A DNA stretch of 64,000 nucleotides from Candidatus Poribacteria bacterium. GTDB taxonomy: Bacteria; Poribacteria; WGA-4E; WGA-3G. The DNA is taken from the NCBI GenBank assembly GCA_965197475.1, contig CBDANF010000003.1, positions 3,680,001-3,744,000 on the forward strand, in the 5' to 3' direction. The notes beneath the pieces were generated by a model. That model ran no database searches and was not told the DNA's origin. It saw nothing but the letters and a program-made list of their open reading frames with translations. A program made the position numbers and the translations under genes. Positions 55,729 through 62,439 of the stretch are shown in pieces. Numbering within the stretch: position 1 is the stretch's first letter; each line of letters starts with the position of its first letter.

Positions 55729-56523
55729 CTAAGATTCATCATCAAAACTAAAAGATTTACCTGATTCAACAACAAGTTCCCTAAAATAATTTACTGCTAA
55801 TCGCAGCTGCTTTTCGGAATCTGCTCTATCAGAGTGAGTTGAAACGAGGTCAACGGGCATTTTATTGCCTTCCACATTACGTAGGGCAACATAAGCCTTT
55901 AGATATACATCTGGATGACGTTCCATCACTTTCTGCATCAGTGGTGAAACTTCCGCTTCAAACATATTTACATAAATCCGTGCGGTACTAATCTCAGCAC
56001 GGTAACGTTCGCCTATCAAGGGTTGAATATGAGTTTCGAAAATCGCTTTCATCTCGCGTGGTGGACCTGGCATCATCATAATAGTAGATTGCTTATGAGT
56101 AACACTTATGCAGGGTGCCCATCCCGCAGGATTCTGAAGTACTTGTGCTGTTTCTGGCACAGTTGCCATCTTGGTTAGTGCTTCATTAAGCGGATCGTTT
56201 TCAGACATCTCACGGCGTTTTCGGTATTCTGCCATGGTCTCTTCATTCACAACAGGTTTTGTGCCAATGAGTGATGCGACAACAGTCACGGTCATATCAT
56301 CCGGTGTTGGTCCGAGTCCTCCCGTTGTAAGAATAAGTGCTGTTTCACGTTGAATTGCACCATCCAACGCATCAGTCATCTCATCAAAATTATCGCGTAG
56401 CATAGTTACTCGGTGTAATTCCCCACCGTATTGTAGTATCTGCTGTGCAATCCAGTGGGCGTTGGTATCCTGAATTTGTCCGAGGACTAACTCAGTTCCA
56501 ATTGAAAACAGTTCTATCGCCAC
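55729..56523 (-). CDS. CinA-like molybdopterin-binding domain protein
   Basis: IGTELVLGQIQDTNA, TTGGLGPTPDDMT, MPGPPREM. Confidence 0.88.
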   Translation of the reverse strand: MAIELFSIGTELVLGQIQDTNAHWIAQQILQYGGELHRVTMLRDNFDEMTDALDGAIQRETALILTTGGLGPTPDDMTVTVVASLIGTKPVVNEETMAEYRKRREMSENDPLNEALTKMATVPETAQVLQNPAGWAPCISVTHKQSTIMMMPGPPREMKAIFETHIQPLIGERYRAEISTARIYVNMFEAEVSPLMQKVMERHPDVYLKAYVALRNVEGNKMPVDLVSTHSDRADSEKQLRLAVNYFRELVVESGKSFSFDDES

Positions 56524-56594
56524 CTAATTCTCCCTTTTACAAAACCTGTTTAAGGAACTCATACGCTCCGACACCGTAAAAACTATATCCCGTT

Positions 56595-56792
56595 TCAAAC
56601 AAGATCGAGCATCTCCGCATATTGTAACACATTTGATATATAGTTGTCTATACAATGACGTAAAACACGCTGCCATTCTTCCGCTTCTGCTACAGTCGTT
56701 GCCCGGAATTCCAATTCGCGTGGTATTTCAGCATATAATTGGTGCGAAAAATCTAAGGTGTCAAGGTATTGTTCACTGGACATCTTTTTCAC
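56595..56792 (-). pseudogene. probable truncated gene fragment (N-terminus resembling acetylxylan esterase-like hydrolases)
   Basis: LEFRATTVAEAEEWQRVLR then loss of protein-like sequence. Confidence 0.35.
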
Positions 56793-57011
56793 TTTTTAGT
56801 AACGCAATAAGTAGTTTTGGACATGATAAAATCTGTGAATTTTAATTTCTCATCTATAAGTGTTTATACAGATAATCTGATTGCAATTCATTTGTATAAT
56901 ACTGCTATTTATAGTTTGTATCAAATGACCCCATGAGTTATACTATTAGTATTCGTTAAACTAACGAGTAGATGTCCTCGGATCCCCGATAATCTATTCA
57001 TGGAGGTCAAT

Positions 57012-57812
57012 ATGAACCGCAAGAAGGATACCGCTTACGGTATCACTCGGCTCGAATCCAAGAATGCCAGAGCCGCGATTATTCAGAAGATTTCAGCAGA
57101 CTTTAATCTAATGCCTCTCGTTGCTGAAGCCTACTATAAACAGATTTCCACCTACTTTGAACAACACGCCGATGTGCACCTGACATCAGGGCAAATCTGC
57201 TACGAGGCAGTCGCCGCAGAGGAACCCGCAGGTAAACATATCGCTTTAGCGAAAAAAGTTTCCTGTCGGCTAACTCTCAATGACACAAACGCCGATCTTG
57301 AAGTCTTAGCGAATTATGGTCTCGCAGGACTCAGACGGCATCGGATCCTCCGATTGACCCAAGAAGCTTATGACCAAGATGCCTTACTGAGCTACGAGGA
57401 TTTAGCTGTATTATTAACCACCAGTCCTGCTACAGTCAAACGCGACATTCGACACTTGAAGCAGGATGGGTATTTCGTTATGACGCGCGGGACGAAACAC
57501 GACATGGGCCCCGGCACTTCTCATAAAACCCAGGTCCTGGAGTTATATTTCAAAGCCTATACCTTCACCGAAATCGAGAAAAAGACGAACCACAGCGAAC
57601 GAGCTGTCTACCGCTACTTGAAAGACTTTACACAAGTCGCTACGCTCCATCATCAAGGCTTTCCTAACGCACAGATACGCCTGATCACCCATCTATCTGA
57701 CCGGTTGATCCGCGAGTATCTCTCACTCTATGAGGAATACCAACACACAGATCGCATGACCCAACTCCTTCACCCAGAACCTGAGGACACAAAAAAGGGG
57801 GACCTCTCATGA
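57012..57812 (+). CDS. DUF1670-like protein A
   Basis: GGAGG RBS; EAYDQDALLSYEDLAVLL, TRGTKHDMGPGTSHK, TNHSERAVYRY. Confidence 0.8.
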   Translation: MNRKKDTAYGITRLESKNARAAIIQKISADFNLMPLVAEAYYKQISTYFEQHADVHLTSGQICYEAVAAEEPAGKHIALAKKVSCRLTLNDTNADLEVLANYGLAGLRRHRILRLTQEAYDQDALLSYEDLAVLLTTSPATVKRDIRHLKQDGYFVMTRGTKHDMGPGTSHKTQVLELYFKAYTFTEIEKKTNHSERAVYRYLKDFTQVATLHHQGFPNAQIRLITHLSDRLIREYLSLYEEYQHTDRMTQLLHPEPEDTKKGDLS

Positions 57813-58693
57813 GCAAACCTCTAACCCGCACGCAAATCAACGAGAAGAAATTCAGACGCATCAACGATAAGTCCCTACGACAGTTGCTCATTCACCGCTT
57901 TCTCAATGACTATGGTTATGACAAAGGCGAAGTCACTGCCACCGCCATTGTTGATGATATTCTTAAGACCGTTGAAGACTATTTCGTGATTACCCTTCCT
58001 TTGGAGAAACTCGCCACCGGCGATCAACTCCCGGATGAGCGTTTCTTGAGTTATGGACAACTCGTTTGGATGGCCGTCCCTATTGAAGAGCATCCAGAAA
58101 GAGGAAAGTCCATCGTCAAAACCCGCATGAAACCCGTCATCCTGACTTACCTCGCCGCAGAGGATATTGAATCCTTTCGCAACGGTTTCACCTCCCGGCA
58201 ATTGCGGATCAATCGCTTGGTCCGCTGGTGTCATCAAGCTTATGACCAAGGGGCATTATTGACACAACTCGACTTGGCAGTTTTGCTCAATGTCTGCGAT
58301 GCCGTTGTCTGTGATTATGTTAATGAATGGCAAAAAACCACTGGAGAACTCTTGCCCACCCGTGGCAATATCCATGACTTATCGGGGGCTATTACCCATA
58401 AGAAAGAGATCATAACCCTCTATCTTCAAGGACATCTCACCCCCAGGATTGCCGCAAAGACCAAACACTCTAAGGAGGCAGTTGACCGATACATTCGCGA
58501 TTATGAGAGCGTCAAAGTCGTTCGGAAAGCAACCGCAGATATTGATAAAATCTCACAGATTACACGACTTTCTAAACGCGTCATCTCTCAATATCTCGAC
58601 CTCATACCGCAGCACCAACTCCAAGCCATAGATGCAGACCTTGCCAATTCAGACTCAAACGATGAAGCCACTCACCAAGGAGAAGCCCAATGA
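57809..58693 (+). CDS. DUF1670-like protein B, translationally coupled paralog
   Basis: ATGA overlap; QAYDQGALLTQLDLAVLL, TRGNIHDLSGAITHK, TKHSKEAVDRY. Confidence 0.8.
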   Translation: MSKPLTRTQINEKKFRRINDKSLRQLLIHRFLNDYGYDKGEVTATAIVDDILKTVEDYFVITLPLEKLATGDQLPDERFLSYGQLVWMAVPIEEHPERGKSIVKTRMKPVILTYLAAEDIESFRNGFTSRQLRINRLVRWCHQAYDQGALLTQLDLAVLLNVCDAVVCDYVNEWQKTTGELLPTRGNIHDLSGAITHKKEIITLYLQGHLTPRIAAKTKHSKEAVDRYIRDYESVKVVRKATADIDKISQITRLSKRVISQYLDLIPQHQLQAIDADLANSDSNDEATHQGEAQ

Positions 58694-58760
58694 GACCCTA
58701 ATCCTATGTTCCCGACGAACTTTACTTCGCAAAACCGGGGCAGGTGCCTTGAAAATATGG

Positions 58761-58789
58761 TTGACAACCGCTACTGGTTTTGCTATACT
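58761..58789 (+). promoter_or_regulatory. near-consensus sigma70 promoter facing the element's right end
   Basis: TTGACA-17 bp-TATACT. Confidence 0.7.
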
Positions 58790-58795
58790 TTAGAC

Positions 58796-58900
58796 ACGTT
58801 TATCGCTAAACGCATCATTTCTCAAAGAGGATGCTCGCGATCCCAACGCAACCCACTCATCAACGATCGCTGGGAAGCCAATAAACATCAGCCTTCCAGC
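58796..58900. ncRNA. candidate structured RNA (four abutting stem-loops) in the element's right end
   Basis: stems 58797-58812, 58812-58834, 58837-58870, 58869-58900, starting at the predicted TSS. Confidence 0.4.
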
Positions 58901-59064
58901 TATCCTATGGTCATTTGATACTATTTAAGAAACGACACGATATCTTCACTTATATTACCACAATAATGGAAGAATGGCGGCGTCTAATTTCGTTATAAAA
59001 GGTTTATATCTCTATAACAGATTGTAAAAATTCAACATATAGTAATCTCAATATAGACTCTTAT

Positions 59065-60270
59065 CTACAAAGTAATGCCCAACTCCTTTGCAATTGTATA
59101 AACATCTTTATCACCACGTCCAGATAGGCATACTACGATGGTTTTGCCGTCACCAAGTTTCGGCGCAAGTTCACGTAGGTACGCAATGGCATGCGCGGAT
59201 TCTAATGCTGGAATGATTCCCTCAGTCTCCGACAACAACTGAAATCCTTCCACGGCCTCTGTATCGGTAATCGGCACATATTCCGCTCTACCAATTTCTC
59301 GATAATAACTGTGTTCCGGACCTACACCAGGGTAATCTAACCCCGCGGAAATCGAATGGGCAGGTGTTATCTGTCCATCATCTTCTTGCAATAGATAGCA
59401 CTTTGCACCGTGAAAAACACCAACACTTCCTGCAATGAGCGGTGCGGCGTGCCGTCCGCTACGGATACTCTCACCTGCTGCTTCAACACCGATAAGGCGA
59501 ACAGACTCGTCATGATAAAATGGATGGAACATACCGAGAGAATTACTGCCACCGCCAACACAGGCAACGACACAATCCGGTAAGATACCCTCCTGTTCTA
59601 AAATTTGTGCTTTCGCTTCTTCGCCGATAACAGCTTGGAAGTCTCTAACGATCATGGGGTAAGGATGCGCCCCGACAACTGAGCCGAGAAGCAAATATGT
59701 TGTGCGGACATTTGTAACCCAATCTCGGAAACAGGCATTGATGGCATCTTTGAGCGTACGTGAACCTGAATTGATAGGCACAACTTTTGTTCCCATCAAC
59801 CGCATGCGGAATACGTTGAGTGCTTGTCGTTCTATATCCTCTTCACCCATATAGACTTCGCATTCCATATCAAACTTAGCAGCGACGGTTGCTGTCGCTA
59901 CGCCGTGTTGCCCCGCACCGGTCTCGGCGATGATACGTTTTTTGCCCATCCACCGTGCAAGCAATATCTGTCCGATTGCACTGTTGATCTTGTGTGCGCC
60001 TGTATGGTTCAGGTCTTCTCTTTTAAGGTATATTTTTGCGCCACCGAGGGTTTCAGTTAACCGTTCTGCATAGTAGAGCGGATTTGGTCTCCCGACATAT
60101 TCACTGAGGTAATACCGAAATTCCTTTTGAAAATCGGAATTATCTTTGAGTGTTGTGTATGCCTCTTCCAATTCTAAAAGTGCGGGCATAAGAGTTTCGG
60201 GGACATATCTTCCACCGAACTGTCCGAAGTGTCCTGTTGCATCAGGAAGTTGTTGCATGTAGTTCTCCAT
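59065..60270 (-). CDS. trpB: tryptophan synthase beta chain
   Basis: [48 protein letters not shown]. Confidence 0.97.
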
Positions 60271-61608: not shown

Positions 61609-62439
61609 TTAAGACAAGTTTTTTTGCTCAAATTCCACAGGTGTCAAATACCCTAACGCAGAGTGAGGGCGTTTGTGATTATACACTTGTGTAATAAAAT
61701 GCCCAATGCGGGCTCTCGCTTCGTGGATGTCCTCATAGTCGTTGAGATGAACTTCTTCTTCCTTGAGCGTGCGGATAAGTCTTTCAGCATATCCGTTCTC
61801 CCAAGGACACCCTCTCCGGGCGACTGAAATCTCAATCCCATGATGCCTAAGCAGTGAGATGGACGCATTTGAAAGATATTGAACGCCTTGATCAGAATGA
61901 TGGATCTCTGGGACATTTTGACATAATGCTGTCTCCAAAGGTTTCAACGTTAGAGATTGCGTCAAGTGTTGACTGATATACCACCCTCTGATCATGCGAG
62001 TGAAGACATCCATGAGCAGACAAACATAGATAAAGTGTCCTTTGAGGCGGACGTAGGTGATATCGCCCACCCAGACCTGATCACATCGGGAGACATCAAG
62101 GTTTTCAAGGCGATTGCTCCAGGGACGCACACCCGCAACGGATGTCGTGGTTTGACAGACACGCTTGACAGAAACCGAGAGGTTGACGGACTTCATCAAT
62201 CGGGCAACACGTTTATACCCGATGGTGTATCCGTTACGCACCAACAACTGTGTGGGACGCCTATATCCGTATGTTGGATATAGCAAAGATAACGTCTCTA
62301 TTTCATCCTGGAGGCCCGCTTCACACGGGGCCTGCTTGGAGTGATAATAGAGGTTGCTTCGGTTGAAACCGAGTGTCTCACATATCTGCCGAACCGAAAA
62401 GTCTGTCCGTAATGCCGTAACCATTTCTCGTTGCTCCAT
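61609..62439 (-). CDS. IS3 transposase OrfB
   Basis: same DDE motifs as copy 1. Confidence 0.92.
   Translation of the reverse strand: MEQREMVTALRTDFSVRQICETLGFNRSNLYYHSKQAPCEAGLQDEIETLSLLYPTYGYRRPTQLLVRNGYTIGYKRVARLMKSVNLSVSVKRVCQTTTSVAGVRPWSNRLENLDVSRCDQVWVGDITYVRLKGHFIYVCLLMDVFTRMIRGWYISQHLTQSLTLKPLETALCQNVPEIHHSDQGVQYLSNASISLLRHHGIEISVARRGCPWENGYAERLIRTLKEEEVHLNDYEDIHEARARIGHFITQVYNHKRPHSALGYLTPVEFEQKNLS

Follow-up and report, generated by a model that had tools for sequence, protein, structure and literature searches.

A 64,000-nt stretch of a Candidatus Poribacteria genome (GenBank assembly GCA_965197475.1, contig CBDANF010000003.1, positions 3,680,001 to 3,744,000; hereafter the window) carries a mobile element that is bounded by inverted repeats and encodes only two paralogous proteins of the DUF1670 family. 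On the evidence assembled here, the element represents an active and widespread family resembling insertion sequences (IS) that fits no known transposase class. To our knowledge, all characterised prokaryotic transposable elements move by one of a handful of enzyme classes. The explanation preferred here, with a probability of roughly 45%, is that the element is an autonomous, site-specific insertion sequence outside the known transposase classes, in which the DUF1670 pair is both the transposition machinery and the catalyst. The more limited proposition that the pair belongs to the element's own machinery is very probably correct.

Boundaries and architecture of the element

The element occupies positions 56911-58924 of the window and is 2,014 bp long, with tips ATAGTTTG (56911) and GATACTAT (58924) set by the alignment of 20 copies. 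In this junction alignment the right end is constant (GGTCATTTGATACTATTT), and the left end is constant from ATAGTTTGTATCAAATGACC. The perfect 13-bp inverted repeat from which a sequence-only reading of the window had proposed a mobile cassette is present and 100% complementary (GTATCAAATGACC at 56918-56930, GGTCATTTGATAC at 58909-58921); it is sub-terminal, lying 7 nt inside the left tip and 3 nt inside the right tip, and both end repeats are built around the near-palindromic core TCA(A/T)ATGA (TCAAATGA). The 22-25-nt end sequences occur at 20 genomic sites, all of them cassette copies, even when two mismatches are allowed, so that the 13-bp repeat is not a chance match. For the same reason a larger parent element with these ends was rejected for this assembly, and the cassette does not appear as a deletion derivative of such an element, an outcome that the sequence-only reading had left room for.

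The flanking repeat is minimal, a 2-bp TT at 56909-56910 and 58925-58926, and TT stands on both sides in 19 of the 20 copies. The earlier statement that no target duplication is present has to be corrected by these two bases, while CTATTTA does occur, as reported, at both 56905-56911 and 58921-58927. Its suggested role as a crossover core is not supported. Among the near-identical copies the five bases to the left of the element are TATTT in 5, TACTT in 12, CACTT in 2 and another sequence in 1, and on the opposite strand these bases, together with the preceding flank base, read as a lysine codon (AAA or AAG) and then a stop codon (TAA, TAG or TGA). They therefore represent target DNA, namely the original lysine-stop end of a gene, and the junctions allow a core of at most 2 bp. 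The features of the element, including its two open reading frames (ORFs) with predicted helix-turn-helix (HTH) units, are as follows.

56909-56910, unstranded: left flanking dinucleotide TT, a 2-bp target duplication or crossover core; TT on both sides in 19/20 copies, and unoccupied palindromes of a sister lineage gain the element plus 2 bp
56911-57011, plus strand: left end, non-coding, 101 nt, with tip ATAGTTT and sub-terminal repeat GTATCAAATGACC at 56918-56930; the homology of the 20 copies begins here
57012-57812, plus strand: ORF1, DUF1670 paralog A, 266 aa, predicted multi-HTH protein; PF07900 E 4e-62
57809-58693, plus strand: ORF2, DUF1670 paralog B, 294 aa, with an ATGA overlap with ORF1; PF07900 E 1.2e-61
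58694-58924, plus strand: right end, non-coding, 231 nt, with repeat GGTCATTTGATAC at 58909-58921 and tip ACTAT; conserved between copies at least as well as the ORFs
58761-58789, plus strand: putative outward sigma-70-like promoter, TTGACA-17 nt-TATACT with an upstream TG; 11/12 consensus matches
58925-58926, unstranded: right flanking dinucleotide TT, which with the right tip gives AAATAG on the minus strand (lysine and stop of the target gene), from the junction alignment and ortholog comparison

Two other repeats lie near the window copy. A 16-nt inverted repeat (56667-56682 and 58968-58983, 94% complementary) brackets it at a distance, and a stretch some 30-45 nt long just to the left of the element, within 56800-56845, matches 14 other genomic places at 87-96% identity and appears to belong to a separate small repeat family.

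Copies and distribution

A BLAST search of the element's own genome (5.70 Mb in three contigs) found 20 copies of the cassette, of which 18 are full length at 92-100% identity, one is internally deleted and one is a 450-bp derivative resembling a miniature inverted-repeat transposable element (MITE), in which about 296 nt from the left end and 161 nt from the right are retained. Nine copies, the window copy included, are mutually at least 99.4% identical yet reside at different loci. DUF1670 matches were obtained in eight of 31 genomes (30 relatives and the own genome), at 1 to 39 per genome, and the distribution of the cassette among the relatives is patchy. The element's word depth in public sponge-metagenome assemblies exceeds that of the flanking DNA roughly 20- to 300-fold, and the assemblies also contain several forms with internal deletions and both ends retained. 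Homologs, close and distant alike, frequently lie on contigs about 2 kb long, a hallmark of collapsed repeats. A tblastn search of a plasmid collection gave no match to the element.

Insertion sequences are generally recognised by several identically ended copies at unrelated loci and by alleles in which the site is empty, and both properties are found here. The other copies and empty sites whose search had been proposed were obtained, the latter as both orthologous and paralogous sites, and together with the patchy distribution and the deletion derivatives they uphold the original view of a mobile element with two DUF1670 paralogs as its only genes. In three copies (C3:3438304, C2:37424 and C3:685907) ORF1 and ORF2 differ widely in their synonymous divergence (dS) from the window copy, e.g., 0.011 versus 0.255, which indicates mosaics formed by recombination between sublineages of the element.

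Target sites and the insertion event

In 18 of the 20 copies, all in one orientation, the right tip adjoins an opposite-strand ORF at its 3' end, and the product of this ORF ends in AAYWDGxN..GE.VASGxYFYxL....TRKMLILK*. All three target genes tested match the TIGR04183 type IX secretion system (T9SS) type A sorting domain at their extreme C-terminus above the 23-bit cutoff (36.0, 35.3 and 30.5 bits; residues 413-499 of 501), and the Pfam families FlgD_ig and Por_Secre_tail match target genes as well. A model built from the C-terminal tails of target genes, applied with an ORF length limit, identified 45 sorting-domain genes above 99 bits in the own genome, 17 occupied and 28 empty, with a lysine-stop end in 27 of the 28 empty genes; the count of 17 rather than 18 occupied targets arises because one occupied remnant falls below the length limit. 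The point of insertion lies between the penultimate sense codon and the final lysine codon of the target gene. As the right tip followed by TT reads AAATAG on the gene strand, the gene keeps its final lysine, gains a TAG stop and encodes an unchanged protein. The same arrangement was found in all seven distinct copies from six other genomes of the genus. Insertion is precise, oriented and sequence-specific with a gain of 2 bp, and it is target-specific and restores the target ORF.

The ortholog of one target gene in a same-genus genome (G049, 95% identical) is unoccupied and ends ATACGG-AAGTAG-cggtcagg. In the own genome this gene end abuts one copy at the right tip, and its downstream DNA (98% identical to G049 over 155 nt) abuts a different copy at the left tip, which means that flanks were exchanged between copies after insertion. 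The window copy itself is one of the two copies away from the preferred type of target gene; TT is still present at the junction in both, and by manual count 8 of 13 positions of the window site agree with the canonical right-flank consensus. The genes on the two sides of the window copy (55900-56800 and 59065-60000) lie over 100 kb from each other in genomes of the genus, G049 and G003 among them, which places the copy at a synteny breakpoint. For this reason no direct empty allele of the window copy was obtained from the relatives, and no clean empty-site joint for it was seen in the sequencing-run check, which covered assembled contigs and cannot show absence.

The target is a conserved coding sequence of a paralog family, as is the case with homing endonuclease genes, and the copies might therefore have been spread by homing, in which a break in an empty paralog is repaired by gene conversion from an occupied one. 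This process was rejected and is extremely unlikely. Eight recent copies share 99.3% identity in the final 240 nt of the element and 63.5% in the 240 nt of flank that follow, about the level seen among empty paralogs (60.0%). The drop falls exactly at the right tip, so that gene conversion, which would leave co-converted flanks, cannot explain the spread. In addition, the left flanks lack homology, and insertions are also present at non-homologous sites.

Several element fragments and one further segment were seen in the course of these comparisons. Genomes G017, G014, G047 and others of the genus contain right-end fragments of about 80-135 nt, some of which run into the flanking gene; G017 has right-end fragments despite having no DUF1670 match in the genome survey. 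Such fragments may be fossil ends retained as suppliers of stop codons. In G047, left and right fragments occur as pairs separated by about 470 nt and have a MITE-like appearance. A segment of about 2.85 kb in the own genome (contig C3, 3209406-3212253) is missing from the orthologous region of G049 and may be another insertion.

Sister and distant lineages

A sister lineage of the element (lineage B, as opposed to lineage A of the window copy) was found in three genomes of the same order that belong to other families (G029, G020 and G028). It is 76% identical to the element, with the same tips and repeats and with the first 30 nt identical, and the stretch most divergent between the two lineages extends from the 3' end of ORF2 to about 85 nt from the right tip. 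Five of the six lineage B copies with both ends mapped sit at the centre of a palindrome, GAAACCGAGTTTTTT^CTTCAAAACTCGGTTTC, which occurs 115 and 59 times in two lineage B genomes as against 0-1 times for the reversed control. Unoccupied palindromes in G029 and G020 read GAGTTTTTT-CTTCAAAAC, and occupied ones contain the element and two extra T. The choice of target has thus changed while the ends have stayed the same. In contig C1 of G029 the palindromic repeat is often arranged in regular arrays, for instance at 1894625-1895413 and 3456504-3457156, with periods of about 159 and 193 nt.

More distant relatives were examined in 22 metagenome loci retrieved with the protein P0391, which belongs to a cluster represented by P0258 (39% identity to ORF2); the proteins encoded at these loci share 35-89% identity with P0391. 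A tandem pair of DUF1670 genes on the same strand is present in 19 of the 22, the other three being a single-frame locus, a short contig and a locus cut at a contig end. The proposed check for terminal repeats around DUF1670 pairs elsewhere gave a positive result, since nearly the same termini bracket the pair even where the ORF2-type protein shares no more than 35-40% identity with P0391. For instance, the termini of locus L072 are TT-ATAGTTTAGGTCAAATGACC...GGTCATTTGATACTAT-TT, and those of L076 and L078 are GTTCATATGACC...GGTCATATGAGC. The flanking dinucleotide is CG, not TT, in L069, L070 and L080, with termini CG-TAAGTTTGTATCATATGACC...GGTCATTTGATACTAT-CG. In L065 the word TCATATGACC lies directly past the pair, and in the GC-rich groups L060-L064 and L067 no such terminal repeat was found. 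Sorting-domain genes are targets in distant lineages as well: the tail model matches L069 (E 1e-10), L070 (1e-15) and L072 (3.5e-7), and the target at L073 ends in STKKMLLLK*. The gene pair is co-conserved with its termini. The DUF1670 family as a whole extends further and was also matched in a control genome from the archaea, Methanosarcina acetivorans.

The DUF1670 proteins

Both proteins are full-length members of Pfam family PF07900 (DUF1670), which has no assigned function, and the assignment first made by motif recognition was confirmed by matches of 209.9 bits for ORF1 (positions 3-220 of the 220-position model, cutoff 25 bits) and 208.3 bits for ORF2 (positions 31-220). The earlier description of two coupled paralogs also stands, with a length of 266 aa for ORF1 when counted from the ATG behind GGAGG (270 aa from an upstream ATG at 57000) and 35% identity between the two proteins over 192 aa. 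At 50% identity the family falls into about 1,000 clusters (1,017 with E<=1e-3), and natural fusions of two units (519-532 aa) and three units (930-952 aa) occur within it. A scan of nine long forms found a known catalytic domain in none; one long form, P0336 (400 aa), has a C-terminal CHC2 (DnaG-type) zinc ribbon. Homologs are labelled as DUF1670 domain-containing or hypothetical proteins, biotin operon repressors, or NarL/FixJ- or CsgD-family regulators.

Both genes are under purifying selection. The ratio of nonsynonymous to synonymous divergence (omega) for ORF1 is 0.09-0.15 when copies are compared with one another and 0.10 in the comparison with lineage B; the corresponding values for ORF2 are 0.03-0.19 and 0.07. 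This observation bears on whether the element could be non-autonomous and moved in trans by a conventional transposase, with the DUF1670 genes as passengers or regulators, which is improbable. No transposase domain lies within the element, and other IS enzymes are present in the genome, as suggested by a 276-aa ORF at 61609-62439 on the minus strand of the window that has the look of an IS3-type OrfB integrase core, judged by eye from its translation. However, strong purifying selection on both genes of a multicopy family is unlike that of passenger genes, the end sequences of the element are found only at its own 20 copies, and in many metagenomes the pair is conserved together with its termini at 35-40% protein identity, on contigs about 2 kb long that contain nothing further.

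Searches of Pfam, NCBIfam, PHROGs and PADLOC detected no DDE/DEDD, HUH, serine, tyrosine or Cas1 transposase domain in either ORF, and the absence of DDE, HUH, serine-recombinase and IS110 motifs noted from the sequence holds by both profile and fold search. NCBIfam had nothing further above its cutoffs, and PHROGs, PADLOC, the ESM atlas (whole ORF2 and residues 1-135) and a PDB sequence profile search returned HTH regulators or nothing, the only match in the last being a designed HTH repeat protein. Weak additional matches were to HTH_11 and others in ORF1 and to HTH_23/28/29 around the motif TxHSxxAVxRY. The AlphaFold models are confident (pLDDT 84.9 for ORF2 and 81.8 for ORF1). In both, a helical N-terminal part is followed by a beta-hairpin and a long helix, after which come a winged HTH and two more helical units that resemble HTHs. 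In Foldseek comparisons with the PDB no match reached E<=1e-3 for either model; partial overlaps were with the winged helices of MntR/DtxR, SelB and ScpB, the Pax paired domain, resolvase HTHs and Cbp1.

In 80 ORF2-type sequences H197, H220 and Y228 do not vary, and another 14 columns, R139, P183, G186, D190 and K198 among them, reach at least 90% conservation; in 24 ORF1-type sequences R159, G160, D164, H171, K172, H194, R201 and Y202 are invariant. In the models, as interpreted here, the segment G..LP.RG..HD.G takes the wing position of an HTH_11/DeoR-like winged helix; (T/S)HK marks the beginning of helix 1 in the HTH that follows, with HS...V.RY as the recognition helix of that unit (helix 222-241 of the ORF2 model). 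The TRGxxHD segment, previously noted as part of a motif conserved in both proteins, is accordingly predicted to be the wing that follows a winged HTH.

The sequence-only reading had proposed a heteromeric tyrosine-type recombinase acting at a CTATTTA core through the His...Tyr of TxHSxxAVxRY, and the invariance of the motif's H and Y in the 80 ORF2-type and 24 ORF1-type sequences is in keeping with this idea. It is nevertheless highly unlikely, as the motif aligns to an HTH recognition helix and no tyrosine-recombinase fold is found among the 418 and 760 Foldseek matches of the two multi-HTH models (best E 0.93 and 0.14). At the junctions, left TA(T/C)TT is target DNA and TT alone is shared, leaving no 6-8-bp overlap region.

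The right end and its possible functions

The hexamers of the right-end promoter are retained in lineage B as TTGGCA and TATACT, and no comparable promoter was found inside the element upstream of ORF1. By analogy with IS families that form junction promoters, this promoter may express ORF1-ORF2 only once the two ends are brought together; from an integrated copy, transcription would enter the target gene at its 3' end in antisense direction. In two metatranscriptome runs from a single sponge study, contigs cover the element while adjacent bins are at or near 0, a pattern that is compatible with transcription but does not prove it, as DNA carry-over is possible and the strand is undefined. A 70-aa frame at 58706-58918 has no family match, and the gaps in the right-end alignment of lineages A and B are of 7, 1 and 2 nt.

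These features raise the question of RNA-guided targeting, in which a non-coding RNA from the right end would pair with target and donor DNA, with the DUF1670 proteins as its partners. The right end is long, conserved and non-coding with a strong conserved promoter, and the region between the 3' end of ORF2 and the right tip differs most between sublineages with different targets. Sub-terminal repeats, a core of at most 2 bp and a target resembling repetitive extragenic palindromic (REP) sequences are moreover shared with the IS1111/IS110 elements, as described in PMC11187229. A guide test was made with ungapped matches of the non-coding ends to the target consensus in both senses, evaluated against 200 mononucleotide shuffles, a procedure that short split guides could escape. 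In lineage A it found an 11-nt stretch (element positions 1808-1818) with a 10/11 match to the target junction, which is not significant (p ~0.085), and in lineage B it found nothing (p 0.37-0.92). The Rfam scan of the right end gave no family, the predicted RNA structure is modest (z -2.3 for the plus-strand fold, and -1.4), and there is no DEDD/IS110 protein. An RNA guide is accordingly quite improbable.

A proposed mechanism and its main alternative

For the preferred explanation, a catalytic DUF1670 pair, the following scheme may be put forward. The two paralogs, with their tandem HTH and winged-HTH units, would act jointly to bind the repeats, pair the ends and recognise the target, and would also cleave and join strands by means of the invariant block RG-x-x-HD-x-G-x-x-x-(T/S)HK ... 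HS-x-x-x-V-x-RY. Each paralog could contribute one copy of the invariant HTH to the recognition of the core TCA(A/T)ATGA; such a joint reading of a near-palindromic core would explain both the invariant residues of the recognition helix and the need for two paralogs. A circular intermediate may exist, and in the junction of a circle, or of a tandem, the outward right-end promoter would drive ORF1-ORF2 across the abutted ends. The ends of sorting-domain genes would serve as a multicopy 'safe harbour', a purpose for which the sister lineage would use its REP-like palindrome.

End binding, the heteromer, catalysis, the circular intermediate and the role of the promoter are all inferred here. Predictions of an ORF1+ORF2 heteromer scored 0.18, 0.31 and 0.10 (mark 0.32), which weighs neither for nor against binding; the natural twofold and threefold fusions make its formation plausible. 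By analogy with known systems, a 2-bp core would be consistent with staggered cutting and repair of the IS630/Tc1 kind, with serine-type exchange or with IS110-type exchange, but not with a tyrosine recombinase. It is tentatively suggested, at somewhat less than even odds, that the DUF1670 heteromer constitutes a new, HTH-only class of transposase or recombinase, without relation to the DDE/DEDD, HUH, serine, tyrosine and Cas1 enzymes and found across bacteria and archaea, with a catalytic centre formed by RG..HD / (T/S)HK / HS...V.RY and with a protein-encoded specificity that has been retargeted between lineages.

Several observations weigh against a catalytic role of the pair. Neither protein contains a known catalytic domain, motif or fold, all similarity being to HTH and winged-HTH modules, and the invariant His, Asp, Lys and Tyr are modelled at DNA-contacting HTH positions, where the recognition of an invariant site could explain them. 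A trans-acting enzyme could be missing from the own genome, which is 92.7% complete by marker genes, or could have gone unrecognised. Circle junctions or excision products were not seen in the assembled contigs, which cannot show their absence. Lastly, no account of DUF1670/PF07900 or of such an element was found in the literature searched; ISfinder lay outside this search, and a prior entry there is possible.

Several of these points would also suit a division of labour in which the DUF1670 pair recognises only the ends and the target, and a ubiquitous host enzyme, borrowed in the manner of XerCD or acting as a topoisomerase or other nuclease, cuts and joins the DNA. There is precedent in IMEX elements, which borrow XerCD. 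Both proteins look purely DNA-binding, and the occurrence of the family in very different hosts, including the archaeal control, means that any helper would need to be a widespread housekeeping enzyme. Against a Xer-type helper in particular, the shared core is 2 bp rather than the 6-8-bp overlap of Xer-type tyrosine recombinases, and the targets are dozens of dispersed sites rather than dif. Furthermore, both paralogs conserve the invariant polar block over about 1,000 clusters, which exceeds the usual needs of site recognition. Reliance on a host enzyme is considered possible, though less likely than not.

Comparison with known systems

A close resemblance in organisation is to the IS1111/IS110 group, for which PMC11187229 describes sub-terminal repeats, REP-like palindrome targets, guiding of the seekRNA type and junction promoters. 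The likeness (PMC11187229; PMC11208160) extends to the sub-terminal repeats, a long non-coding end region, target specificity (REP-like palindromes and conserved coding sequence), absent or minimal duplication and the logic of a promoter assembled at abutted ends. However, the element lacks the DEDD_Tnp_IS110 and Transposase_20 domains in Pfam and NCBIfam searches, it has two HTH-only proteins instead of one enzyme, and it showed no significant guide-target complementarity, with the reservation about short split guides given above.

Members of the IS630/Tc1/mariner group duplicate TA at their target. The likeness to this group (e.g., ISY100) lies in terminal inverted repeats, a duplicated fixed dinucleotide and bipartite HTH binding of the ends, to which may be added the weak HTH_23/28/29 matches of DUF1670 and the Pax paired domain among its weak fold matches. 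In contrast to this group, the element has no DDE/D domain, its dinucleotide is TT (CG in one lineage) rather than TA, its extended target is strongly sequence-specific, and it encodes two paralogous proteins.

The use of a repeated or conserved 'safe' site and the rebuilding of a gene end from element sequence recall the IS1202 family, which targets dif, and the integrases of transfer RNA (tRNA) genes likewise rebuild the interrupted gene end from the element. Those systems employ DDE transposases or tyrosine integrases, whereas this element has neither. With regard to serine recombinases, a 2-bp core is compatible with their chemistry, and the element lacks the resolvase catalytic domain; its matches to resolvase HTHs are weak (HTH_7 at E 0.13; 5cy1, 2r0q and 1gdt at E 1.5-1.9). 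The R-K-H-R-H/W-Y catalytic fold of tyrosine recombinases is not present in the proteins, nor is their identical overlap of 6-8 bp.

Implications

An active element family that is widespread in metagenomes has as its sole conserved genes two that fall into none of the known enzyme classes. If the DUF1670 pair is the enzyme, it would represent a new chemistry or fold for DNA recombination and would provide a function for DUF1670; if a host enzyme is borrowed instead, a small multicopy element would exemplify a new kind of parasitism on host recombination. In either case, the element follows an unusually clean 'safe-harbour' strategy, inserting at the final codon of dozens of paralogous genes for secreted proteins and rebuilding their lysine and stop codons. 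The element is now defined for a direct test, with 2,014 bp, two ORFs, known ends and natural targets in both the occupied and the empty state.

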